A program made the translations under genes and the position numbers. DNA of 64,000 bases from positions 22,013-86,012 of the forward strand of contig JAQGHG010000026.1 in assembly GCA_028288925.1 (NCBI GenBank). The letters are read 5' to 3'. The notes beneath the pieces are model-generated. The model had not been told where the DNA came from, ran no database searches, and saw only the letters and a program-made list of their open reading frames with translations. How positions within the stretch are numbered: the first letter of the stretch is position 1; each line of letters opens with the position of its first letter. Source of the stretch: Patescibacteria group bacterium (GTDB taxonomy: Bacteria > Patescibacteriota > Saccharimonadia > UBA4664). Below, one piece after another: positions 1 through 23,182 of this stretch.

Positions 1-661
1 GCGTCTCGTGACTATCAATCAGGTGCTCGAGGCCAGTACAAAGCCTGTGATCGTGGATGGCGACAGTGGTGGCCATGACCAGCACTTTGCCCAGATGGTT
101 CGAACTTTGGAACGGCTCGGTGTATCCGCCGTTGTTATCGAAGACAAAGCCGGGCTCAAGCGAAATTCACTACACGAGGACACCCACGCGCATATCCAGG
201 AGACAAAGGAGGCGTTTAGCCGAAAGATTAGAGCGGGTATAAAGGCCAGGCGAACCGACAACTTTATGGTGATCGCGCGTATTGAAAGCCTCATTGTTGG
301 TAGCGGACACGATGACGCTATCGAGCGCGCGAAGGCCTACCTGGGGGCCGGGGCAAGCGCGATCATGATCCATTCCAAAGACGCGACCGGAGCAGATGTG
401 AAGCGCTTTTCCAAAGTATATAATACGCTCCCGAATCGTCGTCCGCTTATGATGGTGCCGACTTCCTATAACGCCGTCTCTGAGGCTGAGCTCACATCCT
501 GGGGCGCCAATATTGTCGTCTATGCCAACCATCTACTCCGCGCGGCCTATCCAGCCATGGAGCAAGCGGCGCAAAAGATATTACAGCACGGCCGCGCGCT
601 TGAGGCCGAGCAGCTATGCTTGCCAATTCCAGACTTCCTAAAGCTTATTACGGACGAGTAA
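1..661 (+). CDS. pepM: Phosphoenolpyruvate phosphomutase (PEP mutase), 5'-truncated by window edge
   Basis: Reading frame is open from nt 2 to the window edge, so the gene continues upstream. Motif VVIEDKAGLKRNSLHED matches the PEP-mutase EDK-x-FPK-x-NSL active-site loop. VIVDGDSGG Mg/oxyanion motif. Immediately followed by ppd. Confidence 0.8.
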   Translation, partial: RLVTINQVLEASTKPVIVDGDSGGHDQHFAQMVRTLERLGVSAVVIEDKAGLKRNSLHEDTHAHIQETKEAFSRKIRAGIKARRTDNFMVIARIESLIVGSGHDDAIERAKAYLGAGASAIMIHSKDATGADVKRFSKVYNTLPNRRPLMMVPTSYNAVSEAELTSWGANIVVYANHLLRAAYPAMEQAAQKILQHGRALEAEQLCLPIPDFLKLITDE

Positions 662-664
662 AGT

Positions 665-1816
665 ATGGCCCAATCATTGGCCGGCAAGCTATCACCCAAG
701 GAACTTTATGAAAGCCTATTGGGCGCCGGCGTAACATTCTTTACCGGCGTGCCCGATTCGCTGCTGAGTAGCTTCGGTTTTTATCTCCAGGATCATGCCG
801 GCAGGCATATTATCGCCGCAAACGAGGGTAATGCCGTCGGGCTAGCCATTGGGCACTATGCTGCCACGACCGAGCTGCCGCTCGTGTATATGCAAAATTC
901 AGGCTTAACCAACGCCATGAATCCGCTCGTCTCGCTAGCCGGCCCCTCAGTTATGAGTATTCCGATGATTCTCATGATTGGTTGGCGTGGTGAGCCCGGT
1001 ACCAGGGACGAGCCGCAGCATACTAAGCTGGGTAGTATAACGACGGCCCTGCTAGACGACCTGGACATACCATACGTCATCCTAGCCGGCAGCGCGTCCA
1101 AAGCCATTGAGCAAATTGAATCGATGGTACGAACTGCGAGAGATGGTCAACGAGCGGTCGCAATTCTCGTCCGGGCCGGAACACTGGCTAGCTATGCGCC
1201 GCGTTCGCATCCCAAAAATAGCTATGAGCTGGCCCGTGAAGCCGCCATTACAACGGTACTTGACCAGTTAACGCCGTACGATATTGTGATCTCAACCACC
1301 GGAAAGGCCAGCCGTGAGGTTGCCGAATATATACGAAGTGATGGTGAGCCAGGCCCCCCAAGCTTGCTTGTCGTGGGGGCTATGGGTCACGCGTCGAGCA
1401 TTGCACTCGCCGTTGCTCTGGATCGCGCGTCCCAGCGAGTAATCTGCCTAGATGGTGATGGTGCGGCCATCATGCATCTAGGCGCCCTCACAACCATTGG
1501 CACAAGTGAGGCGAACAATCTGTGCCACATCGTACTAAACAACGGTTCGCATGAGTCTGTTGGCGGGCAGCCCACTGCTGGCTTCGCTGTTAATCTTGTA
1601 GAAATCGCGCGAGCTTGCGGCTATGCTAAAAGCATAAGCGTAGAGAACGGCGAGCAGCTTACTCAAGCCATAAAATCCACCCAAGATGTCGCATGCCCAA
1701 CATTCATCGAAGTTCGGATAGCACAAGGCTCGCGCTCAGATCTTGGCCGCCCAACTGAGTCCCCCGCCGAGAACAAACAACGGTTTATGAATAATCTAAA
1801 GGATCAATCGTTATGA
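665..1816 (+). CDS. ppd: Phosphonopyruvate decarboxylase (TPP-dependent)
   Basis: 383 aa. N-terminal GVTFFTGVPDSLL motif typical of Ppd/AepY. TPP-enzyme-like central and C-terminal domains (GDGAAIMHLGAL). 4-nt gap after pepM. Confidence 0.8.
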   Translation: MAQSLAGKLSPKELYESLLGAGVTFFTGVPDSLLSSFGFYLQDHAGRHIIAANEGNAVGLAIGHYAATTELPLVYMQNSGLTNAMNPLVSLAGPSVMSIPMILMIGWRGEPGTRDEPQHTKLGSITTALLDDLDIPYVILAGSASKAIEQIESMVRTARDGQRAVAILVRAGTLASYAPRSHPKNSYELAREAAITTVLDQLTPYDIVISTTGKASREVAEYIRSDGEPGPPSLLVVGAMGHASSIALAVALDRASQRVICLDGDGAAIMHLGALTTIGTSEANNLCHIVLNNGSHESVGGQPTAGFAVNLVEIARACGYAKSISVENGEQLTQAIKSTQDVACPTFIEVRIAQGSRSDLGRPTESPAENKQRFMNNLKDQSL

Positions 1817-2691
1817 AACGTAACAATCAAGCACCACTGGCCGCCCGACTCTGGGAGTATCAGGCTGAGCGGTCGCCGTTTATTCCGATGGTTGCTATGG
1901 CGGCGGTTAGCGCCGGCGTTTTGTACCGATTTTCGCACACGAGCTTCACTCGATATCTGATCTGCGTCGTGATTATCACGCTCTATCTCGTTCAGGTTCG
2001 CACGGCGGATGAAAAGAAAGATCTCGAACACGATAATCACTATTATCCGAAGCGACCAGTCCAGCGCGGCCTCGTGAGTCTAAGTGAGCTTGCCACGATC
2101 GGCCGAGCCGCTATCGCTATCCAACTTGTGCTGTATGCCTCATTCCTCGACCCGCTAATCTTTCTCCTGGGTCTTCTTTCGCAAGGGTATGCCTATCTCA
2201 CCCGCCGTGAGTTCTATGTTCGTGATTGGATAAAGCCTCATTTTTTTATTTATTACTTTGCGCATTACGTGCAGCTGGTCATCCTGTTTTTCGTTATGAC
2301 TGACATCATTCATCCAACAAGCCGCACAGCCGGCCAACTACTACTCTTTGTGATGCTCAACATTGCTGTAACTGAGCTTGGCCGAAAGAATCTACCAAAA
2401 GATCAGGATGTAGCTGGAGACACGTACTCATCGCACCTTGGGTATCGAGGCACAGCCATCGCGGCTAGTCTCGCCGCGCTGCTAAACGTAGCTTATACCG
2501 CGCATCTAATGGCCCAAAACACAGGGCCTATCGGCTGGATCGCACTGCCACTCATTACAACGATTGCGGTACTAGCCTGTGCGTATCGCTACGCCGTAAA
2601 ACCGGTAAAGGCTAATCAGACAGGGCTTGCGAATGCTGTTATGGTAAATTATGTAGCAGCAATGCTTGGACTTATTGTAGGCGCACGGTAA
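1813..2691 (+). CDS. Polytopic integral membrane protein (about 8 TM), function unknown
   Basis: 292 aa, highly hydrophobic. Start overlaps ppd stop (ATGA). No recognisable catalytic motif. Confidence 0.45.
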   Translation: MKRNNQAPLAARLWEYQAERSPFIPMVAMAAVSAGVLYRFSHTSFTRYLICVVIITLYLVQVRTADEKKDLEHDNHYYPKRPVQRGLVSLSELATIGRAAIAIQLVLYASFLDPLIFLLGLLSQGYAYLTRREFYVRDWIKPHFFIYYFAHYVQLVILFFVMTDIIHPTSRTAGQLLLFVMLNIAVTELGRKNLPKDQDVAGDTYSSHLGYRGTAIAASLAALLNVAYTAHLMAQNTGPIGWIALPLITTIAVLACAYRYAVKPVKANQTGLANAVMVNYVAAMLGLIVGAR

Positions 2692-5027
2692 TGGCCAAAA
2701 CCACACAAGGAACAAAAGCCGACAATCTTTCGCGCCTCGCGGCAGCCGGGTTTAACGTCCCAAAGTTCTATGTGGTGCCACCAACAGCTACGGCGCGGAC
2801 TGCCGGCGCCGCATTTGTAGACTGGAGCCACACACACGGAGTAAAATCCGTGGCTATTCGCTCATCGGGCACGATTGAGGATGGTAAAGACCAATCATTC
2901 GCGGGGCAATTCACGACACTACTTGGCGTAAGCGGCGCCGACCAATTTACTACCGGAATAGACAAAGTATTGTCGTCGCGAGCACACGCTGCCTATTCAA
3001 AAGCTCGGGGTAGTGTCTACGCCATTGTTCAGGAGTATATTGAGCCAGATATCGCCGGGGTGATATTTAGTGTCAACCCAGCCAATGGCAACCAGGAGTT
3101 TGTCATCAATGTTGCGGCAGGCGTGGGTACGGCGGTGGTAGAAGGCAGAGAAGCGCAGCAATACTTTGTTGACCGCCTTGATTGGTCAGATGTTACCAAG
3201 GTGACCCATGGCGAAAGAGAATTACTAGCACAAGCGCAGATCAAGCAACTGTGCCAGATCGCGACGCAAGCAGAAGTACTCTTTGGCACGCTCCAGGACA
3301 TCGAGTGGGCGATCAAAGACGATACCGTGTATGTGCTACAGAGCCGGCCGGTTACAAGCGTGAACCATCTAAGACTCTGGGACAGTTCCAATATATCCGA
3401 AAGTTTTCCTGGTGTCGTGCTGCCTCTGACGTTCTCGATCGCCAAGCGTGGTTATCAGCTTGCTTATAAAGCGCAGGCCTATGCCGCCGGCCTATCCTGG
3501 TACGAGCTGGAGGCAGATCATCGAACGTTTGACGGTATGATTGGTATTTTCAACGGCCGCATGTACTACAATTTGCTTCACTGGTACCGGTTTATCGCGC
3601 TTTTTCCCGGTAGTAGCAATAACCAAAAGTACCTGGACGACCAGATTGCCACGCAAGGTGAGGGCATACGCCAAGCTGCTACCGCTCGAAGTCTAAGGTT
3701 TCGTCTAAAATTCTACCTTCGTATCCTGTACAGAGCGGTTTTCTTCAGGTATGAACTGCGGCGGTTCTACCGGCGCTTCCAGCAGTTCGAAGACGACATG
3801 AGGGCATTGCCAGGTGTCGGCGACTCCCAAGTGTTGTTGCGCCGGTACACTCACATTGAGCAAACTATTGTCCCGCACTTTGGCCGTACGGTCGACAATG
3901 ACTTCTTTGTCATGATTTACCACGGATGGCTCAAGCGGCTACTAAGTGAAGTGATACCCGATAACACCAGTATCATCGGTTCGCTCAACGGTGTCGTGAG
4001 CGCCGAGCAGGCGACATCGTTGTACGATTTGGCTGAGCAACTCAGAGCCGACCAGCCGGCGCGCAAGCTATTAGTAGCCGGCGATTATGCCGCCCTCGAT
4101 AAACACCTCGCTGGCGGTCCGTTGGAGGCCGCCATTACGCGTTACATCGAAACTTTTGGGCATCGTTTCGCCGGCGACCAAAAGATTGAGGTGGAGAATC
4201 CAACGCTTCAGGAGCATGGCGTCTACAAGCTTATGCGCGCGTATGTGCAGCTGAGTAACTCCGAACTCACGAGCCGAATGACCGAAAGCCGTGCCAAATC
4301 CAGCCAGGTCGAACTCAAGATTAAGACGCGGCTAGGACCACTTCGGCGCCTAATGTATGTTGCTTTGCTCAGCCGCCTCAAACATCACCTCAGGCTACGC
4401 GAAAAAAACCGCTTGCTGCGGGGTAAGGCCTACAACTATATGCGGGAGTTATTTCCGAAGCTTGGGCGTGCTTTGGCCGACGAAGGAGTATTGGAAGCCG
4501 GCAACGATATCTTTTACCTGCAGATCGAAGAAATTTATGACCTCGTGCAGGGCTCACTGATAACCAATGACCTCGCCAAGCGTATCAAACGACGTACAGA
4601 AGCTTACCGCGGCTTCGCTGATATGGATATGCCTGAACGTTTTATTACCACCAGTTTGTCATCGCTCGAGAAAATAACTGTGACGAAGAATGCCCGCCCG
4701 CCCGTCTCGGGAGCGGCCCTAACTGGCCTCATTTCGTCACCCGGCACCATTGAGGGCCGTGTTGTGGTGCTTCGTGATCCGGTGATACCGGATGAGCCCT
4801 ACGATATCCTGGTGGCGGAGCATACCGATCCTGGCTGGACGCCACTCATCGCTCTGGCTAAGGGTGTCATAGTAGAGCATGGCGGTATGCTTTCCCACGC
4901 TGCCATTATTACGCGTGAGCTGGGTATTCCAAGCATCATTGGCGTCGCCGGTGCCACTCGGGAGCTTAAAACCGGTATGATTGTCCGGATTAATACCCAG
5001 AAATCCAGCGTTGAGATCCTAGGCTAG
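2691..5027 (+). CDS. PEP-synthase-like / rifampin-phosphotransferase-like dikinase (PPDK_N ATP-grasp + PEP-utilising mobile His domain, no TIM-barrel)
   Basis: 778 aa. N-terminal pyruvate-phosphate-dikinase-type ATP-binding region (AIRSSGTIEDG...). C-terminal phospho-His swivel motif GGMLSHAAIITRELGIPSIIGV. Stop of previous gene overlaps the start (TAATG). Confidence 0.7.
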   Translation: MAKTTQGTKADNLSRLAAAGFNVPKFYVVPPTATARTAGAAFVDWSHTHGVKSVAIRSSGTIEDGKDQSFAGQFTTLLGVSGADQFTTGIDKVLSSRAHAAYSKARGSVYAIVQEYIEPDIAGVIFSVNPANGNQEFVINVAAGVGTAVVEGREAQQYFVDRLDWSDVTKVTHGERELLAQAQIKQLCQIATQAEVLFGTLQDIEWAIKDDTVYVLQSRPVTSVNHLRLWDSSNISESFPGVVLPLTFSIAKRGYQLAYKAQAYAAGLSWYELEADHRTFDGMIGIFNGRMYYNLLHWYRFIALFPGSSNNQKYLDDQIATQGEGIRQAATARSLRFRLKFYLRILYRAVFFRYELRRFYRRFQQFEDDMRALPGVGDSQVLLRRYTHIEQTIVPHFGRTVDNDFFVMIYHGWLKRLLSEVIPDNTSIIGSLNGVVSAEQATSLYDLAEQLRADQPARKLLVAGDYAALDKHLAGGPLEAAITRYIETFGHRFAGDQKIEVENPTLQEHGVYKLMRAYVQLSNSELTSRMTESRAKSSQVELKIKTRLGPLRRLMYVALLSRLKHHLRLREKNRLLRGKAYNYMRELFPKLGRALADEGVLEAGNDIFYLQIEEIYDLVQGSLITNDLAKRIKRRTEAYRGFADMDMPERFITTSLSSLEKITVTKNARPPVSGAALTGLISSPGTIEGRVVVLRDPVIPDEPYDILVAEHTDPGWTPLIALAKGVIVEHGGMLSHAAIITRELGIPSIIGVAGATRELKTGMIVRINTQKSSVEILG

Positions 5028-6067
5028 CCAATCAGCTTCGACAAGGTGACGTAGCGACGAGTGGTGCGCACTCCTAGTCGACGCATTCGATAAATACTAT
5101 TACCCACCCGAACCGTCGAGAAGACCGCTATCTTGAGTCCGTCTTTCTTGGCTTGTTGATGGACACGGTGAATGAGTAGTCCAGAGACTCGCTTGCCCCG
5201 ATACTCCGGCAGCACACCAATTGTCTTGATGACAAGCTGATCGTCGTGCGGAAAAGCAACAATAAATCCAACTGGCCGGCCATCGTCTTCCAGAAAGTAG
5301 CTGTAATCTGAGTTGAAGATTGGCTCCAGACCACCAAGATTATACCGTCGCTCCTCCCAGCTAAGAACCGGGCAGTAGATACTTTGAGACGGAAAGATAG
5401 CATTCATAAGTTCGTGATAATGACGCAATTCGTCAAGCTTGGCAGAAGCATCAAAATGACGCACCTTCAAACTGGCGAGCGGCACCCGCGGCGTTCGGAC
5501 AAACAACCGGATAAACAGCCCGAAATATCGCGTTTGCCCCGAGACATAATGATTAAAGTCTCTATAGCCCGCCGCCCGAAAGACATCCAAGTACCAGGCG
5601 GGGTTAACTGGTTCGCCCGGAATCTTGTAGTCGCTAGCATCGTTCAGCCGGTAGTCGTAGGTAATAGTGCCATTGATGGGGCCGTAAACTCGTGTCACAC
5701 CCGGCTGTGTGGCCAGCCAATGCTCGGCCAGTTTAAGCACGGCAACACCCGCGTCTAGTGTAGTGGCACCAAAGAAGCCAATGATCCCTAGGTCAGGCAG
5801 CCGCTCATCGGTAAACGCGATCACATGAGCCGTGCCGTCCGCCGATTCTATACTGAAGGCTTTGGCTACCAGATGTTCCCAGAGCGGGTTATTTGGATGC
5901 AATTGCTTATCCCAAACAGCTTGAGCCACCGACCGAATCTCCTCACCGTAGGCAACATTCGTAATTGCCGTGAGTTGCCGAAGGCTAGTGGCGAGAAAAG
6001 GAAGTTTAGCCACGGATGAGGTACAACCAAAGGAATATGACCGCGTAAACAGCCTCAAGCTGGGCAA
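5024..6067 (-). CDS. Hypothetical protein with C-terminal GNAT-like acyl-CoA N-acyltransferase fold
   Basis: 347 aa. C-terminal segment RGKRVSGLLIHRVHQQAKKDGLKIAVF resembles the GNAT acetyl-CoA-binding motif. N-terminal 200 aa unassigned. Confidence 0.35.
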   Translation of the reverse strand: MPSLRLFTRSYSFGCTSSVAKLPFLATSLRQLTAITNVAYGEEIRSVAQAVWDKQLHPNNPLWEHLVAKAFSIESADGTAHVIAFTDERLPDLGIIGFFGATTLDAGVAVLKLAEHWLATQPGVTRVYGPINGTITYDYRLNDASDYKIPGEPVNPAWYLDVFRAAGYRDFNHYVSGQTRYFGLFIRLFVRTPRVPLASLKVRHFDASAKLDELRHYHELMNAIFPSQSIYCPVLSWEERRYNLGGLEPIFNSDYSYFLEDDGRPVGFIVAFPHDDQLVIKTIGVLPEYRGKRVSGLLIHRVHQQAKKDGLKIAVFSTVRVGNSIYRMRRLGVRTTRRYVTLSKLIG

Positions 6068-6716
6068 AGATCGGGTGAGGCTTAAGGATCCGTATTGAAG
6101 ACACCATGAATGGGATCATCGCGGCCAGATATACAGCGGCCAGCCACCGATAGTGGGGGACAAATGCTAGCAGTAATCCATATTTACTAAACAGGACTGG
6201 TAGACCAGTGTAGTACAGCCCATCGGTTTTAACGTAGCCTCGAATAGTAAAACGGCCAAGCCGAATAACGCAGAAGACACAGTAAAAAGTCGTGATAACG
6301 AGCGACCACCAGTGCCAATTGAGCTGAATATTAATCACCAAAGCCGGAAACAACACCCAGCCAAGGACGTCATAGAGCGAGTCGAAAACTGCCCCGTAGG
6401 GCGACCCGCCATATTTCCTGGCCACCGCCCCATCGACATAATCAAGAAACATTGAAGCAAAGGCTAGAACCATGGCCAGGTACAATTGGCCATGGTAGGC
6501 TAACCAAAAGGCGCTCGTAATGAAAGCCACGGCAGTCAAAGTGACGTAGTCGGCCACGGAGAGTTCCGCCAAAACACCACCAGACCACAATTTTGCTCGA
6601 CCAAGCTTGTGCATATCGGTCATGATACCAGGATAACCAGTCTTCCAACAGTCTGCGCCTCGTCTAAACATAGTATGGTAGGCTACGATAATATGTTTGA
6701 CACGAACACCCAACAC
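6006..6716 (-). CDS. CDP-alcohol phosphatidyltransferase family membrane enzyme
   Basis: Motif DYVDGAVARKYGGSPYGAVFDSLYDVLGW fits D-G-x2-A-R-x8-G-x3-D-x3-D. Multi-TM. Confidence 0.75.
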   Translation of the reverse strand: MLGVRVKHIIVAYHTMFRRGADCWKTGYPGIMTDMHKLGRAKLWSGGVLAELSVADYVTLTAVAFITSAFWLAYHGQLYLAMVLAFASMFLDYVDGAVARKYGGSPYGAVFDSLYDVLGWVLFPALVINIQLNWHWWSLVITTFYCVFCVIRLGRFTIRGYVKTDGLYYTGLPVLFSKYGLLLAFVPHYRWLAAVYLAAMIPFMVSSIRILKPHPIFAQLEAVYAVIFLWLYLIRG

Positions 6717-6718
6717 AA

Positions 6719-7696
6719 ATGCTGAGAGCTAGTCTAAAATTTGCCCGGCCGCGCATTATTATCACATGTTTTGCAATTGCTACGCTGGGCAGCGCCGCAG
6801 CGGGGCGGGTCACACCGGCCGTATTGTGGTGTTTCTTGCTCATCATCGCATTTATCATCCACGCTAATTCCATCAATGATTACACCGATCTCGAGATCGA
6901 CCGGGTGAACTTAAAAAACGCCAAGGACCGCCCCTTAGTAACTGGCGACATAACGATCCCGCAATTCTGGCTTGTTCACGGTCTAAGCGGAGGGGCAATG
7001 TTACTGTTGTCGGTTCCGTTTGGCTGGCGCGGGGTAGCAGCTTCGGCTGTTGTTGTGGTCATCGATTATTTGTATTCTCTACGGCCCATACGTGTCGCCG
7101 ACCGGCCATATGCTACGCCGCTGGCACTCGCGGGCACGTACGTATACTACTCATTCTCACTTGGGCTATGGTCGGCCCACACCCATGCTGCCTACCCTTG
7201 GATGCTATCCGTCGCGCTTTTCCTCGCGTTCTTGGCGAGACTTCTCCTTAAAGATTTTCGAGACAAAAAAGGTGACAAGCGTTACGGTAAGGAGACGTTC
7301 CTGCTGCGTCACGGTTCTACGACGACCTGCGTAGTCAGCGGTCTGTTATGGGTCTGCGCGGTCGGAAGCACTTTTCTAGCCCGCGCGCCCTGGCCAACCA
7401 TCGTGGTTCTTATTGTTGGTACAGTCATGGTTGGCCTTTGGCTCAAGCGATTATCTGGCCTAGCGGATGTCCAAGATCAACAACGGATGGTAACTGCCAT
7501 AGCCAACGCCGCCAATATCGCCATCGTCGCGCTCCTCGTGGGCTATGTGTGTCGCGATATAGGGGCATCACAGCTTGCGTCAAGCGTCAGTGTGCTTGTG
7601 ATTGGAGCAGGGGCACTCGGATACAATTGGTTTCGCACTAGACACATTACTCAAGCCAGGCGGCCGGTTGATCATAGCCGGGTGCCCTCTACGTGA
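6719..7696 (+). CDS. UbiA-family prenyltransferase (membrane)
   Basis: NSINDYTDLEIDRVN (NDxxDxxxD Asp-rich motif), a second Asp/Lys-rich loop KDFRDKKGDKRYG, about 8 TM helices. Confidence 0.7.
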   Translation: MLRASLKFARPRIIITCFAIATLGSAAAGRVTPAVLWCFLLIIAFIIHANSINDYTDLEIDRVNLKNAKDRPLVTGDITIPQFWLVHGLSGGAMLLLSVPFGWRGVAASAVVVVIDYLYSLRPIRVADRPYATPLALAGTYVYYSFSLGLWSAHTHAAYPWMLSVALFLAFLARLLLKDFRDKKGDKRYGKETFLLRHGSTTTCVVSGLLWVCAVGSTFLARAPWPTIVVLIVGTVMVGLWLKRLSGLADVQDQQRMVTAIANAANIAIVALLVGYVCRDIGASQLASSVSVLVIGAGALGYNWFRTRHITQARRPVDHSRVPST

Positions 7697-7851
7697 TAAT
7701 CCACCTCCCACACCCGCGGAGTACGATAAAATGAAGCCGTTTATGGTATGCGAACACACCTATGCAAAAGGGTTCTCATTGACCTAAGCGGAGCGAGTGG
7801 CTATGGTTATATAAAGCTAATGCTTACTTTTAGAGAGGGTAGTCGTAGTCA

Positions 7852-8499
7852 ATGAGTAGTTTTATGTCATCCGTGGTAGTTCCTCTGTATTTTATCCATA
7901 TTACGATCGCGTTCATCATCTTGGCCTGGTGGTTCACACGCAAGAAAGCACAAGCACTTAAATACTTTGGCTGGGGGCTCACTGGCTACGCGCTAGGCAT
8001 TGGCGCCTGGACGCTCGTTGTGCTCACGAAACCAGCCAGCCTAGAACCACCTATTCTCATCGGCGTCGTGCCGTTCCTGCTCGCCCACGTCGCGTTTGCT
8101 AAGGCGACAATGCTCAGGACGAAGTCTAAACTTGTCCTACCGCTTACAGTGTTGCTACTCGCCGCTACGTTTATTGCTCGTACGTTCTACTTCCAATCAA
8201 AGCCATACTTTTCCGATCAGGGCTACTTCTTTTTCGGGCTGATGGCGGTACCACTTGCATTTTATATCGCGACAATCGCCGTAAGCTTCCTTTCGGCTAG
8301 CATCACCGCCATGGGTGACATCAAGAGCACGACGGTCCGCAGAATTATGACATCGGGGCTCATAGGCGTCTTCATTAACATGGTTATTCAAATATCCGTA
8401 CAAGATGAGAGTCTGCGGATCATCAACGCTGTTGTTGCTACCGTCACCCTCTTCGGGCTCTGGGTAACCGCGGTCACCCACCAAAGCGAGAAAATCTAA
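7852..8499 (+). CDS. Integral membrane protein, unknown function
   Basis: 215 aa, 6-7 predicted TM segments, no motif. Confidence 0.45.
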   Translation: MSSFMSSVVVPLYFIHITIAFIILAWWFTRKKAQALKYFGWGLTGYALGIGAWTLVVLTKPASLEPPILIGVVPFLLAHVAFAKATMLRTKSKLVLPLTVLLLAATFIARTFYFQSKPYFSDQGYFFFGLMAVPLAFYIATIAVSFLSASITAMGDIKSTTVRRIMTSGLIGVFINMVIQISVQDESLRIINAVVATVTLFGLWVTAVTHQSEKI

Positions 8500-8506
8500 C
8501 CCCCGC

Positions 8507-9190
8507 CTAAACCTGAAGTCGTTGCGTTGCTTGGATATCATTTGAGGCAAGAGAAAACACACGTGACATCAGCTCGTCCGGCGTAGCCGCTTGCGTGCAA
8601 ACAAACGGTTCGCCAATGGTGAGACGACAGCTGAATCGACTCTGCCAAGCCAAGTGCATGGGCAGTAGGTGCACCCCCGGCTCTACGGCCAAGGCCGCGA
8701 TGCCAGGTCTGGCGACAAGCTCAGGGGAGCGGCCGCCCTGCGGAAAGATGACAATCGTTTGGCCCGCTATTAATAGCCGTTTCGAGTGCTCGAGACCGTA
8801 AGGCAAACTAATGTGCTTTTGAGCTGGGAATCCACCACATAGCCGGAGTAGTATGCGGAGCCAAGCGTTATCAAAGTATCGGTTCAGGACAAGAAACCGG
8901 TAGGGAATGAGCTGAAAAATTGACCTCGCGGGCAACGACACTACCATAAGGAGCGGATCCAACATACTGCGATGATTGGCGTAGATTACGTTAGGTTCTA
9001 AAGTAGCATGTATGTTGGCCGGCCGACGAAGCCCACCGCGCAGAATCAAAAGGCGCATGACCCACAGGCCGGGGTAAAGGCTGAGTTGAGTTACGAGAAT
9101 TGCCCACCGCCAAGCGGAGTGTTCATTGCGTGACGAGTTAGCTGTGTCATGTATGGTGCTAGGCAACATGCATCTAGTATCGCATACCAA
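8507..9190 (-). CDS. Lysophospholipid (1-acyl-glycerol-3-phosphate) acyltransferase, PlsC family
   Basis: HxxxxD motif (ANHRSMLDP) and FPQGGRS motif of glycerolipid acyltransferases. Confidence 0.7.
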   Translation of the reverse strand: MVCDTRCMLPSTIHDTANSSRNEHSAWRWAILVTQLSLYPGLWVMRLLILRGGLRRPANIHATLEPNVIYANHRSMLDPLLMVVSLPARSIFQLIPYRFLVLNRYFDNAWLRILLRLCGGFPAQKHISLPYGLEHSKRLLIAGQTIVIFPQGGRSPELVARPGIAALAVEPGVHLLPMHLAWQSRFSCRLTIGEPFVCTQAATPDELMSRVFSLASNDIQATQRLQV

Positions 9191-9206: not shown

Positions 9207-9653
9207 ATGAATCAGCCACCAATCTCAGAAGTTACGCATCATTACGCCGGAGTATTCCTTGTAACAGCATCCGGTAAGATCATCGGTCAGCAGCGCGACA
9301 ACAAGCCTGGTATCGACAATCCAAACCGCATCGGTAGTTTTGGCGGTACGATCGAAGATGGTGAAGACCCACTCGCCGGTGCTTGGCGCGAATTGGTCGA
9401 AGAAGAGACGAATTTAGAAATTAGCAAAGAAGACGTTCACTTATACTCCGAAGATGTTGCCTGGCGTAAACTGACAAACGAATGGGAAGGCCGGCATTTT
9501 TATTACGCAAAAATTACCGATGCGGCTCTTGACCAACTCGAAGTGTACGAAGGACAGGGCTGGGCGGTCATTGAATCTCCGGAAGACAAGCTGGTTATCG
9601 ACCTATGGCGTGAGCCGGTGAAGAAGCTACAGATGGCTTTGAAAAAGCCATGA
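9207..9653 (+). CDS. NUDIX hydrolase
   Basis: Nudix box GGTIEDGEDPLAGAWRELVEEETNL (Gx5Ex7REUxEExGU). Confidence 0.75.
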   Translation: MNQPPISEVTHHYAGVFLVTASGKIIGQQRDNKPGIDNPNRIGSFGGTIEDGEDPLAGAWRELVEEETNLEISKEDVHLYSEDVAWRKLTNEWEGRHFYYAKITDAALDQLEVYEGQGWAVIESPEDKLVIDLWREPVKKLQMALKKP

Positions 9654-20786: not shown

Positions 20787-20845
20787 CCAAAAGAGCAGTC
20801 TGACTCCGCTTGGGGTCACGCGTGCCGCCGGTTAATGCCGGGCCG

Positions 20846-21583
20846 TTAAGGCCGCTCAAAGCGGCGAAAACCCTCGGTCAGCACTACTTGGCCACTCTTG
20901 TGAACCATCATGGCCTCGCATCCTTGGCTATGTAAAAACGCCAGGCCTGGCCGCCCCATACAAAACGCCGCTGTAGCCAGCGCGTCGACACGGTCGATCG
21001 TCGCGCCAACTACCGTCAGGCTCACCGGGTCGCCGACCATCCGGCCGGTGCGGGGATTATAAATATGCTCGCCCCGCTCGGCGGTCCCCGAAGTAGCCAC
21101 CGCGGCGTTCTTGAGATAGAGCAGCTTGGCCAGCTTACCCGGCTCGAACGGATTCGCGACCCCAATCGCCCAAGGGCCTCCGTCGGGGCCGTCACCGCTC
21201 ATCTGCATATCGCCGCCCGCGTTGATGCAGTAGCGCGTGATATACCGGCGGTCGAGCAGCCGTGCCGCCTGGTAGACCGCCCAGCCCTTCACGTATCCTG
21301 AAGGGTCGGTGTGGCCGTCCCATACCATATCGAAGCAACCATCCGTCAGCTTCTTTAAGCTCTCGCATTCATCCAAAACCTCCCGGACCTCTTCGCGGAC
21401 CTGGGATCGTTTGAGCTCGCCCCGGTTGAAACGGCTTATTTCGCTGTTCGGCTTGTAAGTGCTAAAGACCGCATCAACGTGGTGAAAATACGCGAAAACC
21501 TCATCAATAGCCTCGTCCAAAGCATTGGCGCCAAATGCCTCAACGGTGATTGGCATACCCATAATAATCCGCGTAGCTTTCAT
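20846..21583 (-). CDS. apbE: FAD:protein FMN transferase (ApbE family), copy 1
   Basis: N-terminal MKATRIIMGMPITVEA, ApbE-like core (DPSGYVKGWA, ATSGTAERG). ORF-track start at 21637 is probably too long. Confidence 0.75.
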   Translation of the reverse strand: MKATRIIMGMPITVEAFGANALDEAIDEVFAYFHHVDAVFSTYKPNSEISRFNRGELKRSQVREEVREVLDECESLKKLTDGCFDMVWDGHTDPSGYVKGWAVYQAARLLDRRYITRYCINAGGDMQMSGDGPDGGPWAIGVANPFEPGKLAKLLYLKNAAVATSGTAERGEHIYNPRTGRMVGDPVSLTVVGATIDRVDALATAAFCMGRPGLAFLHSQGCEAMMVHKSGQVVLTEGFRRFERP

Positions 21584-21607
21584 AACCCTATATTGTACAA
21601 TAATCAT

Positions 21608-23182
21608 ATGCAAGAAACGCCCCTGGAAGTAGCACAAAGGCTCCTCGCGGAAGGAAGAACCACCGATGAGATTAGAGTCGCACTCGGCGGCTCTGCCCCA
21701 ATCGCACCTCCGGCGCCAGAAACAGCTGCTCCGCCACCTCCTCCACCGGCCTCGGTTTCGTCGTCCCCGGCCATGTCCGCGCCAGCTCCTACTCCTGCTA
21801 CGCCACTGCCTCCTCCTCCTCCCGTGCCCGTGGCCTACCCTCAGCTTTTGAGCGCCAGGAGGCCAATACTGGCGATTCCGAAGCTTGGGTGGCCACTTAT
21901 TGCCATTATCTGCCTCATCCCATCCCTCGTTCTGTGCGTCGATGTGCCAATAGCCAACCGGTTTGGCGATATTCCGAGCGCGCTCTTGACCTTCGGAGAC
22001 ATCACAGGCGTAATCGGGCTGGCTACGTATGTCCTAAATCTCGTACTGGCGACCCGCCTACGCTGGCTGGAAGACTTGTTCGGTGGCCTCAACCGGGTGT
22101 TCGTAGCCCACCAGATCCTTGGAGGGTTGTCGCTCGTTACGCTGCTCATCCACCCCATGTTCTCGGCGGCTTCATACTACCCTTACGGCATCCGGGTGAT
22201 GTCGCATTTCTTCATTCCTCAGGTCGCCTATATAGGAACGGCCTTCGGCATAGTGGCGCTCACTATGATCATAGTGCTGCTCGTGCTTAGCTTCTACGTT
22301 AAGATCGGGTATAAGGTTTGGCTGCAAACGCACAAATACCTTGGTCTGGCCTACCTTCTGATAGGTTTGCATATACTTCTCACGCCCAACCGTATCACCG
22401 CCGACCCTTTCATAACCGGGTATCTCTGGGTCCTATTTCTAGCTGGCTTGGTCTCGTTTATATACCGGACACTACTGCCCAACATCTTCGTACGGAGCTA
22501 CCTGTACACCATTTCTTTGGCCGAGCGAAAAGGCGTTGGGGCGGTTGAAGTTACGCTAATTCCCGTCGACAAAATGATCCGCTTCAAAGCTGGCCAATTC
22601 ATCTTTATTGCCTTTGGCAGCGACGGCATATCGAGCGAATGGCATCCTTTCAGTATCTCTTCGGCCGAAACTTCTGGAAGGCTCATGATTGATGTGAAGT
22701 CGATGGGCGGATACACGGAGACTCTCACGCGTCTGCTTCCTCACATGATTGGTATGACAGCTCGCGTGGAGGGGGCTTATGGAAGGTTCTCGTATCGCAA
22801 CTTCGGCAACCTTAACCAGGTCTGGATAGCCGGCGGGATCGGAATCACGCCATTCTTGAGCATGGCTCAGACTCTCGGCACCGGGCCGTATAATGTCGAT
22901 CTCTACTATTCGGTAAAAACCAAGAGCGAGCTGATCGACCTCGATACGCTGGCGGTGCACCAATCGAACAACCCGGGACAGGTCTTCCGCGTGTTTCCCT
23001 TCGTGACGGACGCCTACAATACGTTCCTAAATGCTGAGATCATCGCGAGCAATAGCGGAGACCTCACTAAGCGCGATTTCCTCTTGTGCGGCCCACCGCC
23101 CATGATGCAATCAATAAAGAAACAGCTCATGACGATGGGTGTTAAAGCGAGTCAGATTCACACCGAAGAATTCTCACTCTAA
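21608..23182 (+). CDS. Ferric-reductase/NOX-type membrane flavocytochrome (FRD TM domain + FAD-binding + NAD(P)H-binding), Pro-rich N-terminus
   Basis: TM His pairs (AHQILGG, LIHPMF, THKYLG, GLHILL), HPFS FAD motif, GGIGITPF NAD(P)H motif. ORF-track start at 21479 would overlap ApbE. Met at 21608 preferred. Confidence 0.7.
   Translation: MQETPLEVAQRLLAEGRTTDEIRVALGGSAPIAPPAPETAAPPPPPPASVSSSPAMSAPAPTPATPLPPPPPVPVAYPQLLSARRPILAIPKLGWPLIAIICLIPSLVLCVDVPIANRFGDIPSALLTFGDITGVIGLATYVLNLVLATRLRWLEDLFGGLNRVFVAHQILGGLSLVTLLIHPMFSAASYYPYGIRVMSHFFIPQVAYIGTAFGIVALTMIIVLLVLSFYVKIGYKVWLQTHKYLGLAYLLIGLHILLTPNRITADPFITGYLWVLFLAGLVSFIYRTLLPNIFVRSYLYTISLAERKGVGAVEVTLIPVDKMIRFKAGQFIFIAFGSDGISSEWHPFSISSAETSGRLMIDVKSMGGYTETLTRLLPHMIGMTARVEGAYGRFSYRNFGNLNQVWIAGGIGITPFLSMAQTLGTGPYNVDLYYSVKTKSELIDLDTLAVHQSNNPGQVFRVFPFVTDAYNTFLNAEIIASNSGDLTKRDFLLCGPPPMMQSIKKQLMTMGVKASQIHTEEFSL

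Follow-up and report, generated by a model that had tools for sequence, protein, structure and literature searches.

A dikinase of the RPH superfamily is paired with a UbiA-like gene in a lipid gene cluster of Saccharibacteria

The gene analysed here encodes a 778-aa dikinase and lies on a 64,000-nt stretch of DNA (the window) from a Patescibacteria group bacterium (GTDB class Saccharimonadia; assembly GCA_028288925.1, contig JAQGHG010000026.1, positions 22,013 to 86,012, forward strand). Judging from its architecture and catalytic residues, the protein is very probably a catalytically competent small-molecule dikinase of the RPH (rifampin phosphotransferase) superfamily. Its invariant genomic partner is the UbiA-like gene directly upstream, and not the phosphonate gene pepM. 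The dikinase may phosphorylate a hydrophobic alcohol or enol of a lipid pathway that the UbiA-like transferase handles, a reading that leaves the fewest genes unexplained and to which we give about an even chance. The lipid pathway in which the enzyme is set may be undescribed, and its synteny across phyla was unexpected.

The open reading frame (ORF) starts with ATG, and its product was predicted to be soluble, with polytopic membrane proteins encoded by neighbouring genes. Its start overlaps the preceding stop, as an earlier preliminary description of this DNA had noted: in TAATG at 2689-2693, the TAA (2689-2691) of the UbiA-like ORF overlaps the ATG (2691-2693). Pfam searches detected PPDK_N (E 5.8e-33) and PEP-utilizers (residues 703-770, E 2.2e-22), and the motif GGMLSHAAIITRELGIPSIIGV was found at residues 731-752 of the translation. 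The PEP/pyruvate TIM barrel, PEP-utilizers_C (PF02896), was not found in the dikinase by the Pfam search. The C-terminus lies 8 residues past the swivel domain and the TAG stop shares one CTAG with the stop of the convergent gene, so that there is no room for a C-terminal barrel. The mapping by hidden Markov models thus bears out the RPH-type architecture without a TIM barrel that the preliminary description had proposed, and no complete barrel of a genuine PEP (phosphoenolpyruvate) synthase, which it had named as the finding that would speak against it, was matched.

The RPH domain order, namely PPDK_N, a helical central domain and a C-terminal PEP-utilizers domain, was present according to Pfam, the precomputed Rph_4th annotation of an identical recorded protein (P0001) and an AlphaFold2 model. 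The model, built from 63 homologues, had a pLDDT of 88.3 and a pTM of 0.85, and the top six Foldseek matches to it in the PDB were all Listeria RPH (RPH-Lm; best 5hv1, E 3.3e-32). The best solved relative by sequence was the same enzyme (5fbs; phmmer E 4.7e-44, family-profile search E 1.5e-109); chance cannot account for matches of this strength, by fold or by sequence.

In RPH, Lys22, Arg117 and Thr136 belong to the ATP site, His825 is the phosphate carrier, and the phospho-His is held in place at the acceptor site by a network of Arg666, Glu667, Lys670 and Thr523 (PMC4844700). The residues whose importance in RPH was established by mutagenesis or structure have counterparts here: the alignments paired K22 with K9 of the window dikinase, R117 with R57, T523 with S437, R666 with R570, E667 with E571, K670 with R574 and H825 with H736. 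K9, R57, S437 and H736 were invariant in the 63-sequence alignment, and R570, E571 and R574 were nearly invariant (at least 90%). The dikinase very probably follows the RPH cycle, with the beta-phosphate passing via His736 to an oxygen of a substrate other than rifampin; the conserved phosphotransfer residues agree with the mechanism class suggested earlier, in which the beta-phosphate of ATP is transferred through a phospho-His. In the profile alignment RPH residues 317-489, which hold most of the rifampin contacts (the Q336/Q337/Y351/T354/L478/F479 region), had no alignable counterpart, so that substrate specificity is not readable from the dikinase sequence.

About 90 full-length homologues were found at 44-62% identity, beyond which identity falls to 32% or less. 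When one genome per GTDB species was scanned, close relatives occurred only in Saccharibacteria / Saccharimonadales; a scan of metagenome contigs yielded at least one further close relative, and the genomic contexts of the close clade were obtained chiefly through exact-protein look-ups. The top NCBIfam match was NF004881 (PRK06241.2-2), at 470 bits against a cut-off of 883, and the Dyadobacter orthologue scored 733 bits against the same model. The protein appears to be a size-reduced Saccharibacterial branch of a large uncharacterised subfamily, delimited by synteny, to which NF004881 is the nearest NCBIfam model; its members are encoded straight after a divergent UbiA-superfamily gene, in most cases with stop and start codons that overlap. 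Some Saccharibacterial orthologues of 565 aa (L167:8001-9698; also P0069 and P0093-P0099) lack the ATP-grasp domain and begin exactly at window residue 225. A separate 354-aa protein (L167:4000-5064), with its own PEP-utilizers swivel and no recognisable ATP-grasp, is encoded 3 kb upstream of the 565-aa orthologue.

The scores against curated families were all far below their cut-offs: 195.5 bits against 999 for the RPH model NF041857, 125 against 1700 for NF000283, 195.6 against 1300 for PigC (the NF052631/NF052632 pair), 232.2 against 1350 for RedH and 145 against 739.75 for the PEP synthase model TIGR01418. By these scores, the binding region and the gene context, the dikinase is not RPH, PigC/RedH or PpsA; an identity as PEP synthase was rejected on the missing barrel and the TIGR01418 score, and no pyrrole pathway genes were found near the window dikinase. 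It is accordingly most improbable that an enzyme inactivating xenobiotics or antibiotics by phosphorylation (a true RPH or a kinase of the flavonoid/zearalenone type) or a genuine PEP synthase lies in the cluster by accident. The best solved homologue is indeed RPH and some relatives are annotated as rifampicin phosphotransferase or PEP synthase, but the low scores, the lack of PEP-utilizers_C, the unaligned rifampin-contact region and the strict cross-phylum synteny with lipid genes all speak against such an enzyme.

All ORFs of 166 loci and of the window were clustered into families for the synteny counts. The UbiA-like family (F1) lay directly upstream of the dikinase in 11 of 11 loci of the close clade, in 59 of 72 loci of the tier with 30-40% identity, in 7 of 20 of the next tier and in none of the 29 most distant RPH-like loci; in about 73 of 81 loci the two genes shared a strand and were either adjacent or overlapping. 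The pair was carried by Bacteroidota, Verrucomicrobiota, Planctomycetota, Acidobacteriota, Cyanobacteria, Proteobacteria, Bdellovibrionota and archaeal metagenome-assembled genomes (MAGs). In the reverse direction, independently chosen distant F1 homologues led in two of two cases to operons of the order HMG-CoA reductase (HMGR)-UbiA-dikinase-DUF3419-...-AMP-binding, one of them in the isolate Oceaniglobus indicus. The tandem GNAT gene (F2) was present in 8 of 8 close loci and in 37 of 52 next-tier loci with sufficient flanking sequence.

The F1 protein of the window had no Pfam match even at E<=1, the UbiA model missing this copy. It matched the NCBIfam prenyltransferase model PRK13592 with an E value of 2.5e-12, far under the cut-off, and many F1 homologues carry a precomputed PF01040 assignment. 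The conserved motifs of the family are RxxDExKDxExD as the first motif, an RPVPRG loop and a Glu-based second motif, ExGRK...ExGVxTYS. A 1148-aa ORF in L026, a high-GC haloarchaeal contig, was rejected as a UbiA-dikinase fusion and taken as an ORF-calling artefact; its N-terminal 300 residues are an Arg/Pro-rich out-of-frame read with no UbiA match. Identity with the UbiA-like prenyltransferase of the ebo cluster (Ubi-297) was also rejected, as eboA-E (TatD, 3-dehydroquinate synthase, TIM barrel) differ in content (PMC9235831). The Lipocone superfamily paper held nothing matching the UbiA/HMGR/Patescibacteria neighbourhood, and the searched literature, whose coverage was incomplete, yielded no description of the UbiA-like/dikinase/tandem-GNAT module.

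Twelve distinct Saccharibacterial contexts were then compared (the window, L001/L002, L003, L004, L005, L006, L084, L164, L165, L166, L167 and L170). They had in common the dikinase with the divergent UbiA-like gene directly 5' of it, a GNAT of about 330 aa and a CDP-alcohol phosphotransferase, the last present in every cluster with enough flanking sequence. A canonical UbiA prenyltransferase, a PlsC acyltransferase and a YhhN-like membrane protein were shared as well, and a CMAS-type methyltransferase and a polyprenyl diphosphate synthase were often present. The window bears the markers of a phosphonate cluster: its PepM fragment contains EDKAGLKRNS, an instance of the EDKxxxxxNS motif defined as Ppm-specific (PMC6697681), and its Ppd scored above the cut-off. 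The pepM and ppd genes were nevertheless present in only 6 of the 12 clusters. The six that lack them (L003, L005, L006, L084, L167 and L170) retain the dikinase and the remaining cluster, and both genes were absent from 79 of 79 next-tier dikinase loci, so the dikinase fails as an obligate member of a phosphonate cluster.

Full-length PepM proteins of the relatives (433-440 aa) consist of an N-terminal PF01467 cytidylyltransferase domain with an HxGH motif and the PEP_mutase domain, and the six orthologous clusters suggest that the window PepM is fused to a cytidylyltransferase in the same way. Such Fom1-type fusions make up 23.6% of Ppm proteins (PMC6697681). A stand-alone PF01467 gene was found in pepM-less clusters, and in L170 (51-1301; P0199) the UbiA-like protein carries, in the same reading frame, a Fom1-type cytidylyltransferase domain, and a dikinase of 59% identity comes next. 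L170 appears to be a natural derivative that lost pepM and ppd through a clean in-frame deletion of the mutase domain and ppd. With the Fom1-type fusion and the CDP-alcohol phosphotransferase, nucleotidyl activation of the head group is already encoded. From this and the absence of pepM/ppd from half of the clusters we conclude that the phosphonate genes are a facultative head-group cassette with normal CMP activation and a CDP-alcohol transferase, and that the dikinase is most probably not the phosphonate activator.

The preliminary description had placed the dikinase in a phosphonate/lipid operon and had named, as a plausible role, activation of the phosphonate in an unusual way compared with nucleotidyltransferases. 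The placement in that cluster stands, with pepM and ppd as optional members; the lack of linkage to these genes in relatives, which it had named as contrary evidence, was found in half of the Saccharibacterial clusters and in all next-tier loci. A substitute for nucleotidyl activation is not supported, given the encoded cytidylyltransferase and CDP-alcohol phosphotransferase and the UbiA-like gene as the conserved partner. The alternative of a lipid acceptor in the same description points in the direction that the evidence takes.

Activation of a phosphonate intermediate (phosphonoacetaldehyde, 2-aminoethylphosphonate (AEP) or 2-hydroxyethylphosphonate), for example as a phosphono-phosphate anhydride replacing nucleotidyl activation, therefore seems very unlikely. 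In its favour, the dikinase lies two genes 3' of pepM-ppd on the same strand, and neither an AEP transaminase nor an Fe-alcohol dehydrogenase, which would act on phosphonoacetaldehyde, was found in the Saccharibacterial pepM-ppd clusters (window 2-9190, L164, L165 and L166). Against it stand the retention of the dikinase without pepM/ppd, the absence of pepM from all 79 next-tier relatives, the completeness of the standard route with a PepM-Fom1-type cytidylyltransferase and a CDP-alcohol phosphotransferase (PMC6697681), and L170, in which the cytidylyltransferase, the UbiA-like gene and the dikinase outlived pepM and ppd.

One locus of an unrelated lineage also bears on this question. In L056 (6-10392; MAG 'Cyanobacteria bacterium UBA8530'), a GNAT-like gene, a 919-aa RPH-like dikinase and a UbiA gene stand side by side with phosphonate genes, comprising a stand-alone PepM, Ppd and an Fe-alcohol dehydrogenase that would yield 2-hydroxyethylphosphonate; a PlsC gene is also present. 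No recognisable cytidylyltransferase was found in 13.8 kb of L056, a point in favour of phosphonate activation. As pepM/ppd lie beside a related dikinase in this unrelated lineage, phosphonate head groups joined the lipid module more than once, which still does not place the dikinase on the phosphonate. In two contigs mobile-element genes, among them serine recombinases, a terminase-like gene, a ParB-methylase, Replic_Relax and a TIR protein, flank the pepM-plus cluster (L164:1919-5832 and 20800-22134; L001:2289-5849), which hints that the cluster or the phosphonate cassette travels on an integrative element or prophage.

In other phyla the commonest arrangement was a seven-gene order of HMG-CoA reductase, UbiA-like protein, dikinase, DUF3419 (BtaA family), membrane protein F5, tandem GNAT and AMP-binding ligase, the last being a fatty-acid-CoA-ligase/OleC-like enzyme. 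It was seen in L012 (7648-16726; Dyadobacter soli DSM 25329), L168 (Oceaniglobus indicus), L169, L008, L029, L082 and many other loci, and no description of it was found in the searchable literature. F5 had sub-threshold matches to CTP_transf_1 in 6 of 32 members, and its long form also to DUF92 (the VTE6 family) in 4 of 32; CTP_transf_1 is the superfamily of CdsA, dolichol kinase and the phytol kinase VTE5. A FAR-type NAD_binding_4 reductase (F12) was present in 8 loci (including L085, L087, L089, L081, L092 and L108), none of which has HMG-CoA reductase. Because the two never co-occur, they are suggested to be interchangeable thioester-to-alcohol/aldehyde reductases serving the same step. 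Further variants contain YhhN, CMAS, a lipid kinase of the DAGK_cat type or PlsC, which in some cases has a radical-SAM domain fused to it. In a Clostridia MAG (L071:9956-14290), a single 1444-aa ORF encodes the dikinase together with an adenylation domain (AMP-binding) and a carrier domain (PP-binding), a fusion that ties the dikinase to carboxylic acid activation.

The head-group enzymes differed by lineage, with BtaA-like enzymes dependent on S-adenosylmethionine (SAM) in the other phyla and a soluble cytidylyltransferase plus CDP-alcohol phosphotransferase in Saccharibacteria. Their BtaA and Kennedy-pathway relatives act on lipids with a free hydroxyl, that is, on lipid alcohols. By analogy with characterised relatives, both kinds could leave an amine that the GNAT can acylate. 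A Kennedy-type role, in which the dikinase phosphorylates a small (amino) alcohol that PF01467 converts to a CDP-alcohol for the CDP-alcohol phosphotransferase, would fit the Saccharibacterial cluster, which has the PF01467 and PF01066 steps and no conventional choline/ethanolamine kinase. Such a head-group kinase is improbable, however, as the dikinase/UbiA-like/GNAT trio occurs in about 70 loci of other phyla without PF01467 or PF01066, and as the kinase would be unneeded in the pepM-plus clusters, where the dikinase is kept anyway.

Under the preferred reading, in which the dikinase acts on a lipid-pathway alcohol or enol, the following sequence of steps can be proposed. By analogy with RPH, the ATP-grasp domain would bind ATP, and His736 of the swivel domain would attack the beta-phosphate, with AMP leaving and the gamma-phosphate being hydrolysed. 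The phospho-His domain would then swing over to the helical central domain, where S437, R570, E571 and R574 would orient the phosphate so that an oxygen of the substrate bound there receives it (net: ATP + X-OH + H2O -> AMP + Pi + X-O-P). The operon would provide for an acid to be activated and then reduced to an alcohol or aldehyde, and the substrate of the dikinase would be a prenol, a fatty alcohol, a lipid alcohol or the enol form of the aldehyde. The UbiA-like enzyme would use the phosphate ester, directly or after a second phosphorylation, for ether-type transfer of the hydrocarbon to a lipid backbone. PlsC would contribute an acyl chain and the CDP-alcohol phosphotransferase the head group, placed on the free hydroxyl; the tandem GNAT would acylate the head-group amine. 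In the window genome the head group would be a phosphonate made by PepM and Ppd and CMP-activated by the PepM-fused cytidylyltransferase; this cassette would be swappable for the stand-alone cytidylyltransferase in sister clusters and for the BtaA-like SAM-dependent enzyme in other phyla. The operons that combine the AMP-ligase with HMG-CoA reductase or NAD_binding_4, and the PlsC, DAGK_cat and YhhN genes, support this lipid-alcohol logic, as do the adenylation and carrier domains fused to the dikinase of L071, the weak F5 matches to CTP_transf_1 and DUF92, and the action of both kinds of head-group enzyme on lipid alcohols in their characterised relatives.

Several points weigh against the proposal. 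Characterised dikinases act mostly on phenols, one secondary alcohol and an aldehyde oxygen, and we know of none that acts on a lipid. UbiA enzymes normally need allylic diphosphates, whereas the dikinase yields a monophosphate. The VTE5-like/VTE6-like fusion may already supply both prenol kinases, in which case the dikinase would have another job such as phosphorylation of the acceptor; the polyprenyl diphosphate synthase that is frequent in Saccharibacterial clusters likewise supplies diphosphate donors without a kinase. The unaligned rifampin-contact region gives no guide to the substrate, a functional tie to phosphonates is conceivable given the pepM/ppd genes near the related dikinase of L056, and the gene order does not tell which of the two, dikinase or UbiA-like enzyme, acts first.

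Two other readings remain within lipid chemistry. In the first, the dikinase forms a lipid phosphate, either following the UbiA-like step or from the acceptor of that step; a polyprenol, alkylglycerol or analogue of diacylglycerol could be phosphorylated in this way. The phosphate would then be a handle or mark a carrier lipid instead of serving as a leaving group. Precedents exist within the UbiA family, as DGGGP synthase and decaprenyl-phosphate phosphoribosyltransferase use phosphorylated acceptors; donor kinases like VTE5/VTE6 are possibly already in the widespread operon, and some variant clusters contain the DAGK_cat lipid kinase. We consider this unlikely, since the head-group enzymes require a free hydroxyl and the clusters have no conserved phosphatase. 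It is otherwise difficult to separate from the preferred reading by sequence or context.

In the second, the dikinase is a condensing enzyme of the PigC/RedH type that phosphorylates a carbonyl or enol oxygen, for example of a fatty aldehyde enol, and the enol phosphate is displaced by, for example, a glycerol hydroxyl to give a vinyl ether. PEP synthase makes an enol phosphate from pyruvate and enolpyruvyl transferases displace the phosphate of PEP, while characterised YhhN members cleave vinyl-ether lysolipids, and a gene of the YhhN family is in the cluster. The RedH (232 bits) and PigC (196 bits) models scored at least as high as the RPH model (195 bits), the thioester reductases of the operon could release aldehydes, and PigC and HapC, which work via a phosphorylated aldehyde, offer a precedent (PMC13534948). 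Nevertheless, all three scores are far under the family cut-offs, no UbiA enzyme is known to use enol phosphates, and the operon-carrying taxa are not known plasmalogen producers. The whole argument is one by analogy, and a condensing role thus appears decidedly unlikely.

In its widest form, the proposal would make the UbiA-like protein, the RPH-type dikinase and the tandem GNAT the core of an unrecognised multi-phylum lipid pathway, in which the dikinase makes an alkyl, alkenyl or prenyl phosphate donor for a UbiA-type ether-bond enzyme. This would be a bacterial route to ether glycerolipids independent of archaeal GGGPS/DGGGPS, PlsAR, ElbD/CarF and Ger, leading in Saccharibacteria to phosphono-ether lipids. 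We put it forward tentatively and regard it as rather doubtful.

The features of the window are collected in Table 1. Read from a TTG at 6067, the longest possible ORF for the GNAT has 347 aa. Its true start is probably at 6013, because the deposited annotation and all homologues have about 329 aa, and the overlap with the CDP-alcohol phosphotransferase gene would then be 8 nt and not 62 nt. The second UbiA protein matched the NCBIfam models PRK12884 (E 3e-23) and DGGGP synthase (about E 1e-15), all below cut-offs. The YhhN-like protein of the window had no significant Pfam match; its orthologues in L167 (precomputed) and L003 (E 3e-4) match PF07947 YhhN. No counterpart of the NUDIX hydrolase gene was found by tblastn in any related locus, and the genes past 9.7 kb are unrelated to the lipid cluster. 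The G+C content of the window is about 0.64 at 52001-54000 and 60001-64000, against 0.50-0.60 elsewhere, and a 775-aa ORF (52262-54589) lies within one of these high-G+C stretches.

Table 1. Features of the lipid cluster in the window and predicted parts of the dikinase
Feature	Position	Strand	Basis or detail
PepM/Ppm fragment, C-terminal two thirds, N-terminus beyond window edge	2..661	+	Pfam PEP_mutase E 5e-39; TIGR02320 269.5 bits
Ppd (phosphonopyruvate decarboxylase)	665..1816	+	TIGR03297 448.5 bits (cut-off 312.5); Pfam TPP_enzyme_N, TPP_enzyme_C
Divergent UbiA-superfamily polytopic membrane protein (family F1, 292 aa), coupled to dikinase	1813..2691	+	at least 5 hydrophobic segments
RPH-superfamily dikinase, 778 aa	2691..5027	+	Pfam, phmmer, profile, AlphaFold2, Foldseek
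Dikinase ATP-grasp (PPDK_N), compact	2691..3365	+	residues ~1-225; ATP-site K9 (2715-2717), R57 (2859-2861), E205, Q217/R219
Dikinase central domain (Rph_4th / RIF-BD-like), all-helical	3366..4655	+	residues ~226-655; precomputed PF27448, AlphaFold2 helices
Dikinase phosphotransfer network S437, R570, E571, R574	within central domain 3366..4655	+	
Dikinase phospho-His swivel domain	4713..5024	+	Pfam PEP-utilizers; catalytic His736 (codon 4896-4898), TDPGW motif region
Tandem-repeat GNAT N-acyl/acetyltransferase (family F2), annotated 329 aa	5024..6013	-	
CDP-alcohol phosphotransferase (head-group transferase)	6006..6716	-	CDP-OH_P_transf E 1.1e-13; pssA-like, below cut-off; six hydrophobic segments
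Second, canonical UbiA prenyltransferase (DGGGPS-like)	6719..7696	+	Pfam UbiA E 9e-27
YhhN-like protein with six transmembrane segments (family F8)	7852..8499	+	six hydrophobic segments
PlsC-type acyltransferase	8507..9190	-	Pfam Acyltransferase E 8.8e-13; kept in Saccharibacterial clusters
NUDIX hydrolase, cluster membership uncertain	9207..9653	+	Pfam NUDIX E 4.5e-7

RPH-type dikinases have so far been drug- or phenol-modifying enzymes and prodiginine ligases. If the UbiA-locked subfamily acts in lipid operons, these dikinases would gain a new primary-metabolic role, and one or more undescribed lipids would be expected in many phyla, including the cultured Dyadobacter soli DSM 25329, Oceaniglobus indicus, Calothrix PCC 7716 and Desulfosarcina variabilis. 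The general view is that Saccharibacteria rely on host lipids. Their cluster suggests some membrane lipid, made by the cell itself or remodelled, whose head group can be exchanged and is a phosphonate in the window genome; this bears on how these episymbionts build their envelope, and if the phosphono-ether lipid reading is true, at least some episymbionts with reduced genomes would build distinctive membrane lipids of their own. For phosphonate biology, pepM-ppd behaves here as a cassette that supplies head groups to a lipid pathway already in place, with activation by the usual CMP route.

Compared with known systems, the dikinase shares with RPH-Lm (5FBS/5HV1; NF041857) the three-domain order of ATP-grasp, helical substrate domain and C-terminal swivel His, and presumably the same ATP -> AMP + Pi cycle. 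The two proteins have about 20% identity, and the ATP-grasp of the dikinase falls short of the RPH one by about 70-90 residues, with profile positions 4-233 aligned to RPH 18-316. RPH-Lm is a stand-alone resistance gene, whereas the dikinase is embedded in a conserved lipid operon. PpsA and pyruvate phosphate dikinase have the PPDK_N ATP-grasp and the PEP-utilizers phospho-His domain in common with it, but their His domain is central and followed by the C-terminal barrel, while the window dikinase has its His domain at the C-terminus and no barrel. The phytol salvage of plants and cyanobacteria, in which VTE5, VTE6 and VTE2 take a lipid alcohol through the phosphate and diphosphate to UbiA-family transfer, is alike in logic only. 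The widespread operon holds a protein with weak CTP_transf_1 and DUF92 matches, sub-threshold in Pfam; the VTE5/VTE6 kinases are CTP-dependent membrane proteins, and phytol salvage involves no dikinase.

As for phosphonolipid clusters (Fom1/PntC logic; 'Burkholderiales_CDP-OH' Group 1), the PepM(-PF01467), Ppd and CDP-alcohol phosphotransferase of the window match the published logic of nucleotidyl activation (PMC6697681, PMC8942020). Here, by contrast, the host is Saccharibacterial, the AEP transaminase is lacking and the cassette is grafted onto a UbiA/dikinase lipid cluster. The dikinase is absent from the published accounts, with no occurrence of 'dikinase' in PMC6697681 or of 'PEP synthase' in PMC8942020. 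PigC, RedH and HapC share superfamily and architecture with the window dikinase and set the family precedent for activation of a carbonyl oxygen by phospho-His within a biosynthetic pathway, but its partner, unlike theirs, is a membrane UbiA-like protein. Finally, the two-component dikinases of the HpeHI / phenylphosphate-synthase type have a homologous ATP-grasp as well as homologous swivel and substrate domains, and HpeI (PDB 9goj) was matched by phmmer, Foldseek and the profile search. Some Saccharibacterial orthologues, the 565-aa proteins starting at residue 225, are naturally split or truncated where the HpeHI-type dikinases divide. The latter are two-component enzymes that phosphorylate phenols in aromatic catabolism (PMC12167813), whereas the window dikinase is a single chain linked to lipid genes.

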